The notes beneath the pieces were generated by a model. That model did no database searches. It was not told where the DNA came from and was given only the letters and a program-made list of their open reading frames with translations. The translations under genes were made by a program, and so were the position numbers. Shown here piece after piece: positions 48,268-63,013 of a stretch of DNA of 64,000 bases; the stretch's first letter is position 1; every line of letters starts with the position of its first letter. This stretch comes from Candidatus Woesebacteria bacterium (lineage in GTDB: Bacteria > Patescibacteriota > Microgenomatia > UBA8517): assembly GCA_013374835.1 (NCBI GenBank), contig CP055307.1:660768-724767 (forward strand), read 5' to 3'.

Positions 48268-48404
48268 AGAATGGCTTCTTAGCAAAAAGAACTCAAAAAA
48301 GTAAGTTTCAATAAAAAAAATTTGCTATAATTATTAAGTACTTGCGGGTATAGTTGAAAGGTCCAACGACTCCCTTCCAAGGAGTAAATCGGGGTTCGAT
48401 TCCC
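48268..48404 (+). repeat. 137-bp direct repeat, left copy: tRNA-Gly(TCC) upstream region with TGCTATAAT extended -10, plus tRNA 5' portion through the T-loop
   Basis: ~135/137 identical to 51848-51984 (offset exactly 3580 bp). Confidence 0.85.
48344..48404 (+). pseudogene. truncated tRNA-Gly(TCC): 5' end to T-loop only, 3' T-stem and acceptor strand replaced
   Basis: Identical to the intact tRNA-Gly at 51924-51984, then diverges (TCACTGGGTACCATGG) and cannot close the acceptor stem. Confidence 0.75.
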
Positions 48405-48420
48405 TCACTGGGTACCATGG

Positions 48421-48490
48421 CCCGTGCTCAGTGGCTAGAGTGCTTCGTTTATATCGAAGAAGTCGTAGGTTCAAATTTTATCACCTTCAC
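48421..48490 (+). pseudogene. tRNA-like fragment: canonical acceptor 5' strand, D-arm and anticodon arm (loop TTTATAT, anticodon TAT), but no pairing 3' acceptor strand
   Basis: GGCCCGTGCTCAGTGGCTAGAGTGCTTCGTTTATATCGAAG...; the 3' part does not pair with the 5' acceptor strand. Confidence 0.4.
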
Positions 48491-51847: not shown

Positions 51848-51984
51848 AGAATGGCTTCTTAGCAAAAAGAACTCAAAAAAATAAGTTTCAATAAAGAAAA
51901 TTTGCTATAATTATTAAGTACTTGCGGGTATAGTTGAAAGGTCCAACGACTCCCTTCCAAGGAGTAAATCGGGGTTCGATTCCC
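51848..51984 (+). repeat. 137-bp direct repeat, right copy (leads into the intact tRNA-Gly)
   Basis: See left copy. Confidence 0.85.
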
Positions 51985-51993
51985 CGTACCCGC
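51924..51993 (+). tRNA. tRNA-Gly (anticodon TCC), intact
   Basis: GCGGGTATAGTTGAAAGGTCCAACGACTCCCTTCCAAGGAGTAAATCGGGGTTCGATTCCCCGTACCCGCT; all stems close. Confidence 0.85.
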
Positions 51994-52102
51994 TCCCAAA
52001 GTGGAAATCTATCTATAAATTGTTAGCCTAGCTAGATAGTATTGAAAAATCGCTCAAAGATAAATTTTCAAAAAATGGTGTTATGATGATAAAAAAGAGT
52101 TT

Positions 52103-54376
52103 TTGTGTTTGATGGGAAAAATAACCCTTAAAATTTTATTTGTTTCTCTCTTAATTTCCTCTTGGCTTTTTGCTGGATGGCCGAGAATTTGGCAAAAGCC
52201 ACCAATTCCACCGGCTATTCGTAAAGCTAAGGCAGCGCAGGTAACGATTGATAATTCGATACACACCACTTCTACAAGTCACCTCGATAGTTCACCATCT
52301 ACAGTGTTTATTTCAGAAACTAATGGTTATACTTTTTATCGCGATAGCGGAGGTCAATGTGTTTACAGCAAAACCACAAATGGCGGGACAAGCTGGGGAA
52401 CAGCAGTGACTGTTGATTCTCAGACTGACTGTTTGCAAATTGCTGTCTGGTATGATCGCTGGACACCGGGGGATAATACTGGAACGTTAATCCATTTTGT
52501 GACTTTTGATTCTGGTGATGATGATATTTGGTATGGCTATTTAGATATCTCAAACAATGACTCACTTGCAACTCCAATTAATATCACATCTGGATTAGGT
52601 TATTCGGGCACTCTAGCTGTTGGCACAAACCACACTACCATCACCAAAGGCACGGACGGCGTGCTCTATGCGGCTGTGTCGGATGCTAATGGTACGGGCA
52701 ATATAATGGCCCGTTGTAGCTCAACCTGCACCACAGCAACCAACTGGGCAGTGTCTCAACCAGCATCATGGACTGCTGGTAATGACTATTTAATCTTGGT
52801 ACCTATGCTCTCTGACAAAATAATGCTTCTCTGGTGGGATATTTCATTAGGATCAAATGATATTAAATATTCTATCTGGGATGGTTCTTCTTGGTCGACT
52901 TTTGCTGCCATTGATACAGCTTTAGATAATGCTATTTATGACGCATCATGGGGTGCTGCGATTGACCCATCAACTGGAGATGTGTATTTGGCTTACGCTG
53001 CAAACGCGACTACTTTAGGAACGGACGACAGTATTCGGGTAAAAAAATACACGAGTAGCTGGTCATCCTTGACCGATGTAGTAACCAATAGCGCCTGTGC
53101 CGGCGTTTCAAACTGCGGCATTACCGGAGTTAAAATAGCGATGGACACGACGAGCGGCGACTTGTATGTCCTTTATTCGGCACAGTCAACTCCTGGCACC
53201 GCCACAACTGCTAATGTCTATTTCAAAAAATCAACCGACGGCGGCTCAACCTGGAGTTCAGAATTGGGTCCGGTCTATTCCACAAACGACGATATTTACG
53301 GCGCGCGCTTGAGCTTGTCCGATTCCGCGGGCATCCAGAGAATTTACGCTACTTGGTACGCGGCAACACCGGACGATTTATTCGGCCGGCCGATTGCGCC
53401 CTTAACGTTCAACCAATCTGCGTATCGGTTTTTTAATAATTCAGACTCAACTGATGTTGGTACACCTTTGGCGGTACAGAACACAGAGGCAACTTTGGGC
53501 TCGACCAACGCGGCGTTTCGCTTGAGGATTCTCTTGCATGTCGGAGTTTCTGACTTGTTTACGAGTGAACAGAGTTTCAAACTCCAATTTGCTCAACAAT
53601 CGGGAACGTGCGACACCGGATTTTCCGGAGAGACCTACGCTGATGTTACGACCTCAACCGTGATTGCCTACAACGACAACGCCACGCCTGATGACGGCGA
53701 CAACTTGACTACGAACACCAACGACCCGACACACGACGTTGATACCATTGTCAATCAAACTTACGAAGAATTAAATAATTTTACCAACTCCGTGGCGGCT
53801 ATTAACTCGGGTCAGGACGGCAAATGGGATTTTTCTCTCAAAGACAATAACGCTCCAGCCGAAACCACTTATTGTTTGCGGGTGGTCAAATCCGACGGCA
53901 CGGTTCTGGATACTTACACCGTAATTCCGCAAGTTACCACCGCTAGTTCGGCAACAATTTCTGTTTCTGTTTCCGATGGAAACGTTGCTTATGGGATTAT
54001 TCCTAAGGACACCTCAAAAACTACTCTTGCTTCTGATATGCCACCTTCAGGGGATATGCAAACGGTTAGTTATGATACCAATGTAACGGTTAATATCAAC
54101 ATTAAGGGTAGCGACGCTTCGGGTGGGGGTTGTACTTGGGTATTGGCGGGTACCAATGGTAACGATCAATATGTTCATCAATTTTGCAACGCCACCGATA
54201 ATAATTGTTCAAGTCCGCCAACAAATTATACCGCTTTAACAAGCGGTTATCAGACATTAAAAAGCGGAGTTTCTGGTCAGGGAACAGTGGATTTCCATTT
54301 GCGAATAACTATGCCCACCGAATCAAGTTGTTATGGCGAACAATCAATTAATGTGACTATTCAAGCAGCTCAATAA
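52103..54376 (+). CDS. large secreted BNR/Asp-box repeat (sialidase-like beta-propeller) protein with a C-terminal WxL-like domain
   Basis: N-terminal signal/TM; multiple SxDxGxTW Asp-box motifs (TTNGGTSWG, STDGGSTWS); C-terminal ~150 aa homologous to ORF 55580-56125; 757 aa; middle third markedly GC-rich. Confidence 0.6.
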   Translation: MCLMGKITLKILFVSLLISSWLFAGWPRIWQKPPIPPAIRKAKAAQVTIDNSIHTTSTSHLDSSPSTVFISETNGYTFYRDSGGQCVYSKTTNGGTSWGTAVTVDSQTDCLQIAVWYDRWTPGDNTGTLIHFVTFDSGDDDIWYGYLDISNNDSLATPINITSGLGYSGTLAVGTNHTTITKGTDGVLYAAVSDANGTGNIMARCSSTCTTATNWAVSQPASWTAGNDYLILVPMLSDKIMLLWWDISLGSNDIKYSIWDGSSWSTFAAIDTALDNAIYDASWGAAIDPSTGDVYLAYAANATTLGTDDSIRVKKYTSSWSSLTDVVTNSACAGVSNCGITGVKIAMDTTSGDLYVLYSAQSTPGTATTANVYFKKSTDGGSTWSSELGPVYSTNDDIYGARLSLSDSAGIQRIYATWYAATPDDLFGRPIAPLTFNQSAYRFFNNSDSTDVGTPLAVQNTEATLGSTNAAFRLRILLHVGVSDLFTSEQSFKLQFAQQSGTCDTGFSGETYADVTTSTVIAYNDNATPDDGDNLTTNTNDPTHDVDTIVNQTYEELNNFTNSVAAINSGQDGKWDFSLKDNNAPAETTYCLRVVKSDGTVLDTYTVIPQVTTASSATISVSVSDGNVAYGIIPKDTSKTTLASDMPPSGDMQTVSYDTNVTVNINIKGSDASGGGCTWVLAGTNGNDQYVHQFCNATDNNCSSPPTNYTALTSGYQTLKSGVSGQGTVDFHLRITMPTESSCYGEQSINVTIQAAQ

Positions 54377-54389
54377 ATTTTTTATGACT

Positions 54390-55504
54390 TGACATGCACA
54401 GGATCAGATACATATTCGACATTGAGTAAGCATGGCAAGATCCACTGGGGTAAGCATGAAATCTGAGTTTGTAATGGGTAAAATCAAGAATTCCAAGGAG
54501 GTGATGAACTTGATTTCCCATCTGAGAAGATTTGATCAAAGTGAGGTGGCCCAGGAAAGACTAAGAATAATTAAGTATTATGCCAAACATGGAGAGGTTG
54601 CCACAAAAGAGGCCTTTGGAGTAGATCGCAAGCTTATCTTCACCTGGAAGAAAAGAGTACTAGAGAGAAAGAGTATCCAGGGGTTAGTTCCAGACTCCAC
54701 AGCTCCAAGGGGGGTAAGAAGGTCAGTAGTGGATCCTAAAATTGTTGATTATATTAAATCCCAAAGAGAGTTTGTCCCCAGAATGAGCAAGAAGAAGCTT
54801 AAACCCTTACTTGATGCATACTGCAGAGAAAATAATCTCCTAACAGTATCAGAGGCTACCATTGGGAGGATTATCTCAAGAAACAATCTATTTTATTACA
54901 AAACAGGCAGAGTATACCACAATCCAGCCTCTAAATGGGCTCAAAACAAGACTAAGAGCAAGAAGAACAGAATTAAATATGCACCCAAACCAGAAACTCT
55001 GGGATACATCCAAGCTGATACTGTGGAGAAAATCATTGATGGCATTAGGTGGTATATGTACCAGGCAATTGATGTGAAGGGAAAGTCTGCCCTTTCCCTG
55101 ACCTACAAACACTTAAATTCAGTTAACACTGTGGACTTCTTCAAGAAATTCCAAACACTTATTCCCTACAAAATCCACACAGTCCAGACTGACAATGGTA
55201 AAGAGTTTCTCAAACAATTCAGGGTTTACCTAGAAAAACAAAACATCAAACACATTTTTATATACCCCAGAATGTCCAAGATCCAGGGGGTGGTAGAGCG
55301 CTTCAACAGGACCATCCAGGAAGATTTTATTGACCCCAACCTCCACCTTATCTACAACCAGAAAGCTTACAATCAACGTCTTGCAAAGTACCTGATATAC
55401 TACAACTGCCAGAGAGTACATGAATCCCTAGGTAATATGACACCAACAGACTATCTCATCCAGGAAGGAGGTATGTCGAATATGTTACGATCCTGTACAT
55501 GACA
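54390..55504 (+). mobile_element. insertion sequence (~1.1 kb) with single DDE transposase and 32-33-bp imperfect terminal inverted repeats; IS481/IS30-like
   Basis: IRL TGACATGCACAGGATCAGATACATATTCGACAT (54390-54422) vs reverse complement of IRR TGTCATGTACAGGATCGTAACATATTCGACAT (55473-55504), ~28/33 matches; possible 4-bp ATGA flanking duplication. Confidence 0.75.
54432..55502 (+). CDS. DDE transposase (rve/integrase-core with N-terminal HTH)
   Basis: D (YIQADTVEK), D (VQTDNGKEF), E (ERFNRTIQEDF) triad; C-terminal YNCQRVHESLGNMTP; 356 aa. Confidence 0.8.
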   Translation: MARSTGVSMKSEFVMGKIKNSKEVMNLISHLRRFDQSEVAQERLRIIKYYAKHGEVATKEAFGVDRKLIFTWKKRVLERKSIQGLVPDSTAPRGVRRSVVDPKIVDYIKSQREFVPRMSKKKLKPLLDAYCRENNLLTVSEATIGRIISRNNLFYYKTGRVYHNPASKWAQNKTKSKKNRIKYAPKPETLGYIQADTVEKIIDGIRWYMYQAIDVKGKSALSLTYKHLNSVNTVDFFKKFQTLIPYKIHTVQTDNGKEFLKQFRVYLEKQNIKHIFIYPRMSKIQGVVERFNRTIQEDFIDPNLHLIYNQKAYNQRLAKYLIYYNCQRVHESLGNMTPTDYLIQEGGMSNMLRSCT

Positions 55505-55579
55505 ATGAAAAAAATATTTTAGTAAAGTTAAAAATAGCTAATATGAATAAAAATATGGATACCAAGGAAGCAAAATATT

Positions 55580-56125
55580 TTGAGAGGGGGTGAAGATGTG
55601 TTTAAAAGAATTTTAATATCTTTTGCTTTGATGATTCTTTTGGGTGGTAATTTTTGGTTTGAAGTAATGGCAGCTGACACCGGCGATGTGACGGCAACGG
55701 TAACAGTACAAAATGTAGCAATTACAGTTTCCGACGGTGCCATTGCCTATGGCACTTTAGCTGCTGGAGGAACCAGAAGTACATTACCAAGCGAGGCTAA
55801 TGACATGCAAGTTGCCACCAATACCGGTAATGTTCAAGAGGATTTTAACATTAAAGGATATAACGTTTCTTCTGGCTGTAGTTGGACACTTGGCGCAACC
55901 CAAGACTCTGAACAGTATTTTCATAAATTTTGTAATGATACGGCCAATGATTGTTCAACACCACCAACTAATTATAATGCCTTAACTACAAATTACCAAA
56001 CTCTAAGTTCAGCTGTACCGACTAGTGGTGCTAGAGATTTTCAATTACAGATTGGTGTTCCATCTTCAACTTCTTGTACATCTGAAGCAACCATAACAGT
56101 TACAGTTCAAGCTGTTGCTAGTTAA
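55580..56125 (+). CDS. secreted protein consisting of a WxL-like beta-sandwich domain (paralog of the BNR protein C-terminus)
   Basis: Signal peptide; ~40% identity to 54000-54376 translation (VSDG.IAYG ... NIKG...GCSWTL ... DQY.H.FCN.T.N.CS.PPTNY.ALT..YQTL); 181 aa. Confidence 0.5.
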   Translation: MRGGEDVFKRILISFALMILLGGNFWFEVMAADTGDVTATVTVQNVAITVSDGAIAYGTLAAGGTRSTLPSEANDMQVATNTGNVQEDFNIKGYNVSSGCSWTLGATQDSEQYFHKFCNDTANDCSTPPTNYNALTTNYQTLSSAVPTSGARDFQLQIGVPSSTSCTSEATITVTVQAVAS

Positions 56126-56165
56126 GATTATTGCCAAGATTTTATATGAGTGATAGAGTTTTATT

Positions 56166-56780
56166 ATGAGAAAGACTTTATTTTTTGTGATTTTTTTAAC
56201 TTTTTTCGTTTTTCCACTTCCGGTTTTTTCCAATCTTGGAGTAGGTGTTGCTACCGGAAAAATTGTGGTTGAAGACAAACTCAGACCAGGGATGATTTAT
56301 AATCTTCCTCCGTTGACAGTATTAAACACAGGCGACGAGGAAGCAGAATATGAGGCGGGTGTGGCTTATCACGAGAAGCAATCAGAACTTCAGCCGAATG
56401 AAAAATGGTTTGATTTTTCTCCAAAAAAATTCTTTCTTAAACCAGGTGAAAGTCAGAAAGTAGAAATCAAATTAAATTTACCAGTTAGAGCTGAACCCGG
56501 CGATTATTTCGCTTATTTGGAGGGTAAACCATTGAAAAAATCAGAATCAGGTAAATCAACAATAGGAATAGCTGCAGCGGCTAAGCTTTACTTTACTGTT
56601 TTACCGGCTAACCCAATTTTGGGAGCTTATTATAAAGCAGTGTCTCTTTGGAAAATTAACCAGCCCTGGTCCGCACGTTTTGCGATAATTATCGGAGTAG
56701 CTATTCTTTATTCCTTACTAAATAGATTCTTAGGATTTCAAATCAGCTTTGGCAAAAAAAAAGAAAAAAAGAATGAATGA
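56166..56780 (+). CDS. cell-surface protein with N-terminal signal peptide, Ig/PapD-like middle and C-terminal TM anchor with basic tail (CscA/DUF916-like architecture)
   Basis: 204 aa; signal; C-terminal TM IIIGVAILYSLL followed by KKKEKKNE. Confidence 0.35.
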   Translation: MRKTLFFVIFLTFFVFPLPVFSNLGVGVATGKIVVEDKLRPGMIYNLPPLTVLNTGDEEAEYEAGVAYHEKQSELQPNEKWFDFSPKKFFLKPGESQKVEIKLNLPVRAEPGDYFAYLEGKPLKKSESGKSTIGIAAAAKLYFTVLPANPILGAYYKAVSLWKINQPWSARFAIIIGVAILYSLLNRFLGFQISFGKKKEKKNE

Positions 56781-57409
56781 AATGGGTAGGATCATTTTTT
56801 TTTATACTTATTCTCGCCTTGCTTTTTAAAGGTTTTACCTTTGTTCAGGGGATTTCTTTTCAAGATTTAGAGGCAACCATTAAAATTAGTGTTTGTGGCG
56901 ACGGAAAAATTGAAGGCGATGAGAATTGCGAGGGAGATAATTTAAATAACCAAACTTGTGAAAGTTTAGGCTATGGTTCTGGTACCTTAACTTGCGATAT
57001 TGCCTGCAGTTTTGATACTTACGGCTGCTTACCCGCTCCAACAACTACTCCTACACCATTTTCTTCTACCCATCAAACTATTCCCCAATCTGACACAACC
57101 ACGTCTAGTTTAATTTCAAGTCTGGCACCAACACCCTTTTTTTATTCTACTCCGAAACGAACCGTCTCCCTTCCGCAGGCAATAATTCCTTTTGACACTA
57201 ATTGTGATAATATAATTGAAATAAGTGAACTTTTTGAAAGCGTCAGAGATTGGGTTGATAGCTGGATAATTAAAACGAGTAAATCAATTATTCGAAGAGA
57301 AACCAGCAAAAAAACAAGATGTGGTTTAATTCAAGATTGTGATTTAAACCGTGATAATGAGTGTAATATAGTCGATTTTTCAATACTTATGTATTACGTA
57401 AAGATATAA
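56777..57409 (+). CDS. secreted Cys-rich protein with Thr/Pro-rich linker and two dockerin-like Ca-binding-type repeats
   Basis: Signal peptide; CGDGKIEGDENCEGD; T/P/S linker; DTNCDNIIEISELFESVRDWV and DCDLNRDNECNIVDFSILMYYV resemble dockerin repeats; 210 aa. Confidence 0.35.
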   Translation: MKWVGSFFFILILALLFKGFTFVQGISFQDLEATIKISVCGDGKIEGDENCEGDNLNNQTCESLGYGSGTLTCDIACSFDTYGCLPAPTTTPTPFSSTHQTIPQSDTTTSSLISSLAPTPFFYSTPKRTVSLPQAIIPFDTNCDNIIEISELFESVRDWVDSWIIKTSKSIIRRETSKKTRCGLIQDCDLNRDNECNIVDFSILMYYVKI

Positions 57410-57410
57410 A

Positions 57411-58403
57411 ATGAAAAAACTCGCTATTTTCACTTTTCTTCTAAAGATTATTGGCTTTATTATTGCCTCTTGGTTTTTGGTTCATATCTTGTCTATTTTT
57501 GGAGTCTTTTTGGCATTAGCTTACCCTCTTTGGTATCTTTTTGGATTTAAGAGAATTCCTTGTTTATGGTGTCAAATTAAAAAGGCGCAATTTTGTACTT
57601 TTTCTCATAGTATTTTCGATTCTGGCTTGATTTTGGTTTTTACTTTGTTTTCTCTTGGCTTAGTTTTTGCTGAAGCAAAAATTATTTTCAAAATGGGTTT
57701 TCCACCAACAGCTAAAACAGTTTCTTTTGTTATTCCCACTAAGGGTCAATACCGATTAGGTGAAATCTTTCCAATGAAGATCGAAATATCTGGGGTTAAA
57801 ACCCCTATTAATGCCGTTCAAGCTGATTTGGGTTTTGACTCTAAAAAAATTCAGATTGTTGACATATCAACCAATGAATCGTTTGCAAATATATTTATTC
57901 AGAAAGAAATCAATAATGAAGTTGGTTATGCCCGATTGACCGGTGGTTTGCCAAATCCTGGTTTTTTTTCAGAACATGGAGTTTTTGGTTCTGTTTTTTT
58001 TAAGGGCATAACACCAGGAATTGTACAAATTAAGTTTCTGCCCTCTTCAATGGTTTTAGCAAATGACGGTCGAGGCAGTAATGTATTAAAGGATTTGGCA
58101 TCTGCTTCTTATTTGATTTTACCTGAAAAATTGTCTCAAGAGGAAGAAGAGATTCAAAAAAGTATTATTTTGAAACCAAATGTTTTGGGGGAAAGTAACG
58201 AAAACACTAAAATGAAGTTTTATGAAGAGAAAGGAGTTTTAGGAACGCAGGTTGTAAAAGACATCGAAAAAGTGAAAAAATTTGACTTAGGTAAAAAAAT
58301 ATTAGAAATTTTGGAAAAAATTGATCGGTTTATTTTATCTTTGTGGGCAAGGTTAACTGGATTAACGTCATCTTTTTTTACTTCGCGTTTCTACCGGGCA
58401 TAA
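57411..58403 (+). CDS. membrane protein with cohesin-like extracellular domain
   Basis: Three N-terminal TM helices, then VSFVIPTKGQYRLGEIFPMKIEISGVKTPINAVQADLGFDSKKIQIVDIS...GVFGSVFFKGITPGIVQIKF, a cohesin-like pattern; 330 aa. Confidence 0.35.
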   Translation: MKKLAIFTFLLKIIGFIIASWFLVHILSIFGVFLALAYPLWYLFGFKRIPCLWCQIKKAQFCTFSHSIFDSGLILVFTLFSLGLVFAEAKIIFKMGFPPTAKTVSFVIPTKGQYRLGEIFPMKIEISGVKTPINAVQADLGFDSKKIQIVDISTNESFANIFIQKEINNEVGYARLTGGLPNPGFFSEHGVFGSVFFKGITPGIVQIKFLPSSMVLANDGRGSNVLKDLASASYLILPEKLSQEEEEIQKSIILKPNVLGESNENTKMKFYEEKGVLGTQVVKDIEKVKKFDLGKKILEILEKIDRFILSLWARLTGLTSSFFTSRFYRA

Positions 58404-62941: not shown

Positions 62942-63013
62942 GGGCCCATAGCTTAATAGTAGAACAACACCCTCTTAATGTGATGGTCGGAGGTTCGAAT
63001 CCTCCCGGGCTCA
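62942..63013 (+). pseudogene. tRNA-Lys-like degenerate copy: divergent 5' half (weak D and anticodon stems, acceptor mismatch) but 3' half identical to tRNA-Lys; right boundary of islet
   Basis: GGGCCCATAGCTTAATAGTAGAACAACACCCTCTTAATGTG + ATGGTCGGAGGTTCGAATCCTCCCGGGCTCAC; the 32-nt stretch 62983-63014 is identical to 58634-58665. Confidence 0.6.

Follow-up and report, generated by a model that had tools for sequence, protein, structure and literature searches.

The insertion sequence (IS) described here occupies positions 54395-55499 on the + strand of a 64,000-nucleotide stretch of the genome of a Candidatus Woesebacteria bacterium (contig CP055307.1, positions 660,768 to 724,767; the whole stretch is hereafter called the window), between the gene of a BNR-like secreted protein and that of a small signal-peptide protein. 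Comparison of its copies and relatives across public assemblies suggests that it is a complete, lately mobile element of 1,105 bp from a distant branch of the IS481 family, and that its clade as a whole combines an oriented choice of N5-TTGA targets (five bases of any kind followed by TTGA) with selection acting on the inserted copies. We assign this reading a probability of about 0.75. Briefly, it is carried by the exact limits of the element, by the identical copies found in other genomic contexts, by a promoter-like register in the flanks to the right of the insertions, and by the position at which the transposase gene finds its stop codon.

The limits of the element were established from identical copies in other contexts, whose flanks were compared. 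Conservation among these copies begins at 54395 (TGCACAGG…) and ends at 55499 (…CCTGTACA). All left flanks diverge directly upstream of TGCACAGGATC, and all contigs carrying the element end at …GATCCTGTACA or one base beyond. Stand-alone contigs that consist of the element only measure 1,104-1,106 bp, and one of them, present in 15 samples, is exactly 1,105 bp long (L009). In sample SRR6186653, the element forms a contig of its own, with the left-flank contig ending exactly at 54394 (L013) and the right-flank contig beginning exactly at 55500 (L014). A 5-bp target duplication, TGACA, abuts both ends (left copy 54390-54394, right copy 55500-55504), and the first three bases of the right copy form the stop codon of the transposase gene. 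The empty site predicted from this duplication would read …TTTTTTATGACTTGACAATGAAAAAAATA….

The terminal inverted repeats were delimited by the same flank comparison together with a repeat finder, which reported an inverted pair at both ends with the perfect 13-mer ACATATTCGACAT. The left repeat (IRL) covers 28 nt on the + strand (54395-54422: TGCACAGGATCAGATACATATTCGACAT) and the right repeat (IRR) 27 nt on the - strand (55473-55499, as read on that strand: TGTACAGGATCGTAACATATTCGACAT), with the tips TGCACAGGATC… and TGTACAGGATC…, respectively. The two repeats consist of a block matching at 10 of 11 positions, an unmatched spacer, which is 4 nt long in IRL and 3 nt long in IRR, and a block matching at 13 of 13 positions; the inner repeat box of the element is ATATTCGACAT. 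IRR opens with TGT and IRL with TGC (TGA in relatives), which are tips of the family type. The one-base asymmetry of the spacers is also kept in relatives (L023-L033), and it might be a basis for oriented target choice.

The distribution of the element was investigated by exact look-up and by similarity search. The identical transposase was found on 10 contigs of different samples. At least four different left flanks were distinguished; three follow a gene (BNR-like, YdjC or peptidase M48), and the fourth is a separate context. The search for further copies, proposed in an earlier note on this DNA, detected none elsewhere in the 64-kb window, where neither repeat block recurs and the copy is therefore the only one, and identified 12 contigs of other assemblies that carry the element, 11 of them identical throughout the 1,105 bp and the remaining one differing at a single base. 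The presence of identical copies in several contexts indicates that the element moved recently. The junctions seen in the window recur in independent assemblies (L002, L011-L015), and a contig of the Candidatus Woesebacteria metagenome-assembled genome UBA1430 opens with the same 1,105 bp and then runs into an unrelated right flank. Three genome matches carry a host name, and all are Woesebacteria. A full copy that is 74% related is present in the complete genome CP055308.1 of Candidatus Woesebacteria Ch104a (L017), which also holds a 5'-truncated copy (L018). Furthermore, 990 related transposases were retrieved by protein search (E <= 1e-3), and most of the 120 listed are on contigs of 1.1-1.6 kb, typical of assembly breaks at repeats. 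The earlier note had called intact IS elements uncommon in very small genomes; with so many related transposases, the argument from rarity is weakened. No match was obtained when the element was compared with plasmids by blastn, and a transposase scan of viral contigs detected no relatives. Copy-paste transposition is thought to operate in IS481-family elements (PMC6794481). By analogy, the present element would also move by copy-paste, and its multiple identical copies are consistent with such a mode.

Target duplications of the same length were identified at other insertions of the clade. Perfect 5-bp duplications are TGACA in the window, TTGAG in L023, AGGCC in L033 and AAAAC in L037, and split contig pairs give CGACC and TCAAA. 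A 205-kb contig of the European Nucleotide Archive carries two head-to-tail elements with about 50% protein identity (L048, 782-2995), arranged as TAGCT / IS / TAGCT / IS / TAGCT-TTGACT-N17-TATAAT. The threefold presence of TAGCT around these tandem elements indicates that the same target was hit twice.

Reading of the right flanks at the DNA level revealed a conserved arrangement. Nineteen distinct sites were read, comprising metagenome loci, genome loci and relatives, and the statistics were calculated on the first 17. In 15-16 of the 19 independent insertions, the bases beyond the right end form a spacer of 5 nt, a -35-like hexamer, a second spacer of 16-18 nt and a -10-like hexamer (right flanks of L016-L018, L020, L023-L028, L030, L033, L034, L038, L042 and L048, and window 55500-55534); L018 and L048 are the two in-register sites added later. 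The -35-like hexamers include TTGACA (five times), TTGACT (four times), TTGAAA (twice), TTGAAC and TTAACA, and the -10-like hexamers include TATAAT (seven times), TATTAT (twice), TAGAAT, TAAAAT and others. A combined score of at least 10/12 was reached by 10 of the 17 sites and by 0.04% of window positions (binomial P ~2e-30). Likewise, TTGA stands at +6..+9 in 10/17 sites against an expectation of 0.76% (P ~1e-17). The information content of the columns peaks at +6..+9, at +27 (a G, which recalls extended -10 boxes) and over +29..+34, and is flat elsewhere. A -10 box with at least 5/6 matches follows in register in 9 of the 12 TTGA-bearing sites, compared with 3% of the 977 TTGA words of the window (P ~5e-12). 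Three sites with poor hexamers (TTTTTT in L017, TGGAGA in L024 and CTGCAT in L038) have a perfect TATAAT exactly 17 nt on. In the seven distinct right flanks with a called gene and in the window, the next called gene is always co-directional with the transposase. The hexamer at +6..+11, TTGA(C/A)N, would be the -35 box of a sigma-70-type promoter of this next gene. A promoter belonging to the element itself was considered and rejected, because the right flanks of copies that differ by 0-1 mismatch (window, L016, L019) are unrelated to each other. A full-text literature search of incomplete coverage yielded no report of an IS targeting -35 boxes; the apparent promoter-linked target preference of the clade is unusual and probably new to the literature.

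The same register is reflected in the C-terminus of the transposase. No in-frame stop codon is present inside the element, and the frame (…TGT ACA) runs to its last base. Within the element, coding ends with T356 (ACA, 55497-55499), and the stop codon TGA at 55500-55502 opens the right TGACA copy. In L033, L034 and L042, the called gene stops two codons beyond the element, at the TGA of a TTGA word; the gene called in L038 extends further. Among 120 cluster representatives, a tail of exactly two residues follows the invariant terminal Thr in 68, as the TTGA offset predicts, and 13 have no tail. A Cys encoded by TGT or TGC occupies the third tail position in 19 of 37 longer tails. K, E, Q, M and W are all absent from the second tail position, which fits a codon with T as its last base. 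ISLxc2/ISLxx4 and ISRe46 are known to take a TAG stop codon from their NCTAGN target (PMC2516522, PMC6794481); the borrowed stop is thus already known for IS481 members, and it is the target that differs here. We also considered that TTGA is conserved merely to supply the stop codon. This was rejected, as any nearby stop would serve and the in-register -10 box would be unexplained.

The transposase gene (54432-55502, + strand) is a single uninterrupted open reading frame (ORF) of 356 codons for amino acids (aa) and has no frameshift site. Its best NCBIfam match is IS481 (NF033577; E 3.8e-44, 151 bits), which it covers from position 2 to 283 of 284. The three catalytic residues on the + strand, D196 (GAT, 55017-55019), D254 in the motif TDNG (GAC, 55191-55193) and E289 in the motif VERFN, 35 residues past D254 (GAG, 55296-55298), are invariant in an alignment of 15 relatives (51-81% identical) with the spacing D-58-D-35-E, and D254 and E289 correspond in alignment to the catalytic D and E residues in the integrase of human T-cell leukaemia virus 2 (HTLV-2). 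The description of the element as an intact IS with a complete DDE transposase is borne out by these results, and the check for truncation suggested along with it revealed none. Pfam matches are rve_3 and rve, and the N-terminal region matches only generic helix-turn-helix (HTH) families (HTH_32, HTH_28 and HTH_23). The IS3 profile (NF033516) gave E 1.6e-17 and 63.8 bits against a cut-off of 160, and the ISNCY / IS1202 profile (NF033594, ISNCY_2) reached 15 bits where the cut-off is 250. Among annotated plasmid genes, the nearest carry the label 'IS481 family transposase' and are 35-37% identical over residues 38-351. Elements of the IS481 family are about 1-1.3 kb long (ISfinder). The present element fits the characteristics of the family with a single DDE ORF, TGT…ACA-type tips, a length of 1,105 bp and a 5-bp duplication; target-site duplications of 2-15 bp, mostly 6 bp, and TGT…ACA tips are described for the family (PMC10045372). 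The classic IS481 subgroup, with NCTAGN targets and a 6-bp duplication, is excluded by a CTAG duplication at 0/19 sites and by the duplication length of 5 bp; the family itself is not excluded thereby. As judged from these profiles and tips, the element appears to be a distant member of the IS481 family outside the classic NCTAGN subgroup. Regarding the start codon, an in-frame ATG at 54504 (M25) directly follows AAGGAGGTG, and several relatives of 330-340 aa start thereabouts; closer relatives keep the longer N-terminus (MA.STGV…), and the start is ambiguous between 54432 and 54504.

Several alternative explanations of what the element is were weighed against these observations. The earlier note had placed it at 54390-55504, with inverted repeats of 32-33 bp beginning TGnCATG and a 4-bp ATGA duplication. 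Its ungapped inverted match does span the outer bases, with about 28 of 33 positions pairing if the outer 5 bp are counted, and the inverted repeats as such hold under formal alignment. The extra length consists of the 5-bp TGACA duplication added to the real repeats, and it looked like a part of them because TGACA is nearly its own reverse complement. The similarity of identical copies is lost exactly at 54395 and 55499, the lengths of the stand-alone contigs and the ends of the two flanking contigs in SRR6186653 agree with these positions, and the ATGA copies (54384-54387 and 55505-55508) lie 7 nt from the left and 5 nt from the right true end and are not equidistant from either set of ends. 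The repeats are accordingly retained and the limits moved, and the older anatomy is almost certainly incorrect. The idea that the copy is a relic unable to move, or was created by the assembly of the window, is hardly more credible. It would agree with the single copy in 64 kb, but not with the same junctions in independent assemblies, with the intact ORF, DDE residues and repeats, or with copies of 0-1 mismatch in at least four other contexts. An assignment to IS3 or another rve-type family is very unlikely. One unbroken ORF without a frameshift site, 151 bits for a fully covered IS481 profile against 64 for IS3, nearest annotated genes of the IS481 family, and TGT/TGC…ACA tips with a target-supplied stop codon, as in IS481 members, all speak for IS481, against an IS481 score under the NCBI cut-off, an IS3 profile that also matches, and a 5-bp duplication equal to that of the IS2 subgroup of IS3. 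Collectively, the element is a real and ordinary IS481-type element with a corrected anatomy.

For the register itself, the pattern of the sites suggests that oriented target choice for N5-TTGA plus selection is the likeliest cause. Selection cannot fix a base-pair position, an orientation or the reuse of a site, which leads us to infer a transposase that recognises N5-TTGA at a set distance from the site of strand transfer. In a genome that is about 90% coding, selection would then mainly retain copies at genuine promoters, immediately 5' of the -35 box, where an insertion would break nothing, and intragenic insertions would be purged. The survival of copies at such promoters clearly contributes. 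Random integration, with the register arising from the purging of lethal insertions in a gene-dense genome, would explain why a -10 box in register accompanies 9/12 insertion sites but 3% of TTGA sites in general. It is nevertheless unlikely, given the exact 5-nt gap in 15-16 of 19 sites, the single orientation throughout, the same TAGCT site hit in L048 by two elements with proteins only about 50% identical, and the two-codon tails in 68 of 120 clusters. Guidance of the transposase by the transcription machinery, for example by sigma region 4 or promoter-bound RNA polymerase, is suggested by a register that tracks whole promoters beyond the TTGA word, and by the three sites without TTGA at +6 yet with a perfect TATAAT exactly 17 nt on. 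However, the hexamers of these three sites share 2-4 positions with TTGACA, for which a degenerate reading plus selection suffices; such a protein contact lacks direct evidence, the N-terminal region matches generic HTH families only, and classic IS481 members choose their targets by sequence, so that we consider guidance improbable. At somewhat less than even odds, the preferred reading of oriented target choice plus selection may extend to a stronger form, in which the transposases of a widespread clade of the candidate phyla radiation (CPR) home with base-pair precision and in one orientation to the upstream edge of sigma-70 promoters. In this tentative form, the -35 hexamer, possibly within a polymerase-bound promoter, would be the target, and the TGA of TTGACA would serve as the element's own stop codon.

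A number of points weigh against the reading as a whole. Only 19 sites underlie the register, all promoters here are consensus matches, and target choice by the transposase, as distinct from selection after insertion, is presumed. The window copy fits the register weakly (ATGAAA-N18-TAAAAA, 8/12). With 151 bits, the IS481 score falls short of the curated cut-off of 224, which makes the element a distant member of the family. A search of the Joint Genome Institute (JGI) metagenomes with the pattern left flank, 0-20 nt, right flank detected no same-strain empty site, and the IS-free species discussed below are 72-73% identical in the neighbouring 175-aa protein and are not the same strain. Several metagenome copies and the complete-genome copy L017 have no target duplication; L017 is flanked by AAAAA on the left and CAATG on the right, with TATAAT in register on the right, and its duplication could be missing through recombination between copies. 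Chimeric contigs were found across the 1.1-kb repeat, with L031 combining the left flank of L030 and the right flank of L026, and L034/L035 having the left flank of L023. Missing duplications in such contigs are uninformative because the left and right flanks come from different insertions, and chimeric joins across the repeat account for at least part of those observed in other metagenome contigs. Given these joins and the matching halves of the split pairs, the missing duplications were dropped as evidence against a duplication. Cross-repeat joins of contigs were also seen for L034/L035 versus L023 and L037.

The element can be compared with several known systems. With the classic NCTAGN members of the IS481 family (IS481, ISLxc2/ISLxx4 and ISRe46/TnRErm46) it shares a size of about 1.1 kb (ISLxc2 also measures 1,105 bp), a single DDE ORF, TGT…ACA-type tips, a short duplication, a sequence-specific target choice and a target-supplied stop codon (PMC2516522, PMC6794481), and, by analogy, presumably copy-paste movement. 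It differs from them in a protein identity of about 35% to annotated members, an NCBIfam score below the cut-off, and a duplication of 5 bp instead of the usual 6 bp (PMC10045372). The target here is N5-TTGA(C/A)N, and the stop codon usually lies beyond the duplication, after two codons, whereas the classic CTAG lies inside the duplication. Furthermore, the target of the present clade would coincide with promoter -35 boxes, apparently in one orientation only. The rve/RNase-H-fold DDE core, the HTH N-terminus, the TG…CA tips and a 5-bp duplication, as in the IS2 subgroup, are shared with IS3 (PMC10045372); in contrast to IS3, the transposase is not split into two overlapping ORFs joined by a programmed -1 frameshift, and the IS3 profile score is far lower. 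IS1202-related elements, which are relatives of the IS481/IS3 type, are reported to insert beside XerCD (xrs/dif-like) sites in a fixed relation (bioRxiv 10.1101/2022.12.17.520857). The target there is a recombination site, whereas here it is a promoter, and the ISNCY_2 profile gives the present transposase a mere 15 bits. The yeast retrotransposons Ty3/Ty1 use an integrase of rve-like fold and insert at a fixed position upstream of transcription units, which provides a safe haven within a compact genome. They are eukaryotic long-terminal-repeat elements guided by RNA polymerase III transcription factors, and the analogy is functional only. IS870 of Agrobacterium, which belongs to a different family and has a different target from the present element, needs its CTAG target for the stop codon of the transposase ORF, and IS870 is not known to be linked to promoters.

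If true, the clade-wide promoter register would show how a selfish element persists in the gene-dense, reduced genomes of CPR bacteria while leaving genes unbroken. It would amount to a promoter-homing 'safe harbour' strategy, for which the full-text literature search found no description in a bacterial IS. The IS481 habit of a target-supplied stop codon would be extended to a new target that doubles as a functional host signal. The register may also serve as a base-pair-precise marker of promoters in unculturable organisms, and it points to a natural DDE transposase whose target preference is short, oriented and linked to promoters.

In the window, the element is located between the gene of the BNR-like secreted protein (52112-54376, + strand; 754 aa in public assemblies) and that of a 175-aa signal-peptide protein (55598-56125, + strand), whose GTG start follows GAGAGGGGGTGAAG. 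The earlier note had described this neighbour as sharing a paralogous domain, and the BNR-like protein is indeed 46% identical to the 175-aa protein over its own C-terminal 137 residues (E 3e-38). The Pfam match of the upstream gene to BNR_2 is weak (E 3e-5, below the curated cut-off). The 175-aa protein with the GTG start matches a public record, and an exact look-up of the 181-aa version with a TTG start found it not on record. With the corrected limits, the distances to the neighbours, earlier given as 14 nt and about 75 nt, also change: the element starts 18 nt after the stop codon of the BNR-like gene (TAA, 54374-54376) and ends 98 nt before GTG 55598, the start in public assemblies, or 80 nt before the mechanical TTG start at 55580.

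Promoter-like sites were identified at both junctions of this copy by consensus matching. The left site, TTGACA-N16-CATATT (54389-54416, + strand, 10/12), would combine a -35 box made of a host T and the left TGACA with a -10 box inside IRL, and would read into the transposase gene. The right site, ATGACA-N18-TAAAGT (55499-55528, + strand), matches the consensus at 9/12 positions and may drive the 175-aa gene. The presumed recognition position in this copy is the hexamer ATGAAA at +6..+11 from the right end (55505-55510, + strand), where relatives carry TTGACA, TTGACT or TTGAAA. It would lie one hexamer further in than usual, so that the ancestral -35 box (T/TGACA) would have been split. In the orthologous loci of two related species, no IS lies between the corresponding genes, and the same spacer carries TTGACA-N16/17 and a -10 box. 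The reconstructed empty site and the two orthologous spacers were compared by direct reading, as MAFFT left the TTGACA boxes unaligned; the spacer of L047 is AAATGACTGTTGACAAG, and that of the window is TTATGACT-TGACAATG. From this comparison, the ancestral form would be TTGACA-N18-TAAAGT, and the element appears to have split the ancestral -35 box of the downstream gene, with the duplication largely rebuilding it. The earlier suggestion that the IS could affect expression of the surface locus gains a concrete form, in that the element would touch the promoter of the downstream gene by cutting a -35 TTGACA that is largely regenerated. With ATGACA-N18-TAAAGT rebuilt on the right, a mild effect on the 175-aa gene would be expected: it should keep a slightly weakened promoter (TTGACA to ATGACA), with possible read-through from the transposase gene in addition. 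The transposase gene, in turn, may have gained an intact host-derived -35 box.

Several minor observations concern the surroundings of the element. The G+C content of the BNR-like gene is 0.45-0.52, against 0.30-0.38 in its surroundings (window 52400-54200), which could reflect either the Thr/Ser/Gly-rich composition of the protein or a foreign origin. A tRNA-Gly(TCC) is present just upstream of this gene (51924-51996), and position 51955 within it is the starting point of four public contigs covering the locus, which appears to mark an assembly break point or a repeated sequence. Only tRNAs were detected by Rfam in the window, and none lies inside or beside the element. Three of these Rfam tRNA-model hits were not called by ARAGORN (48344-48413, 48426-48481 and 62942-63013); they score 33.5, 31.3 and 46.5 bits, above the gathering threshold, two of them stand directly after a tRNA-Val/tRNA-Phe pair, and all three may be divergent or degenerate tRNAs. 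Downstream of the element, a cluster at 55598-58403 comprises the 175-aa gene and genes of 204, 210 and 330 aa, none with a Pfam domain. The cluster is partly conserved in related species, with homologues of the 175-aa, ~204-aa and ~313-330-aa proteins recurring in L045 and L047; a ~210-aa gene is found in L047, and L045 has instead a 73-aa gene on the opposite strand. The family of the 175-aa protein counts at least 310 homologues, including entries from WS6 and Minisyncoccales.

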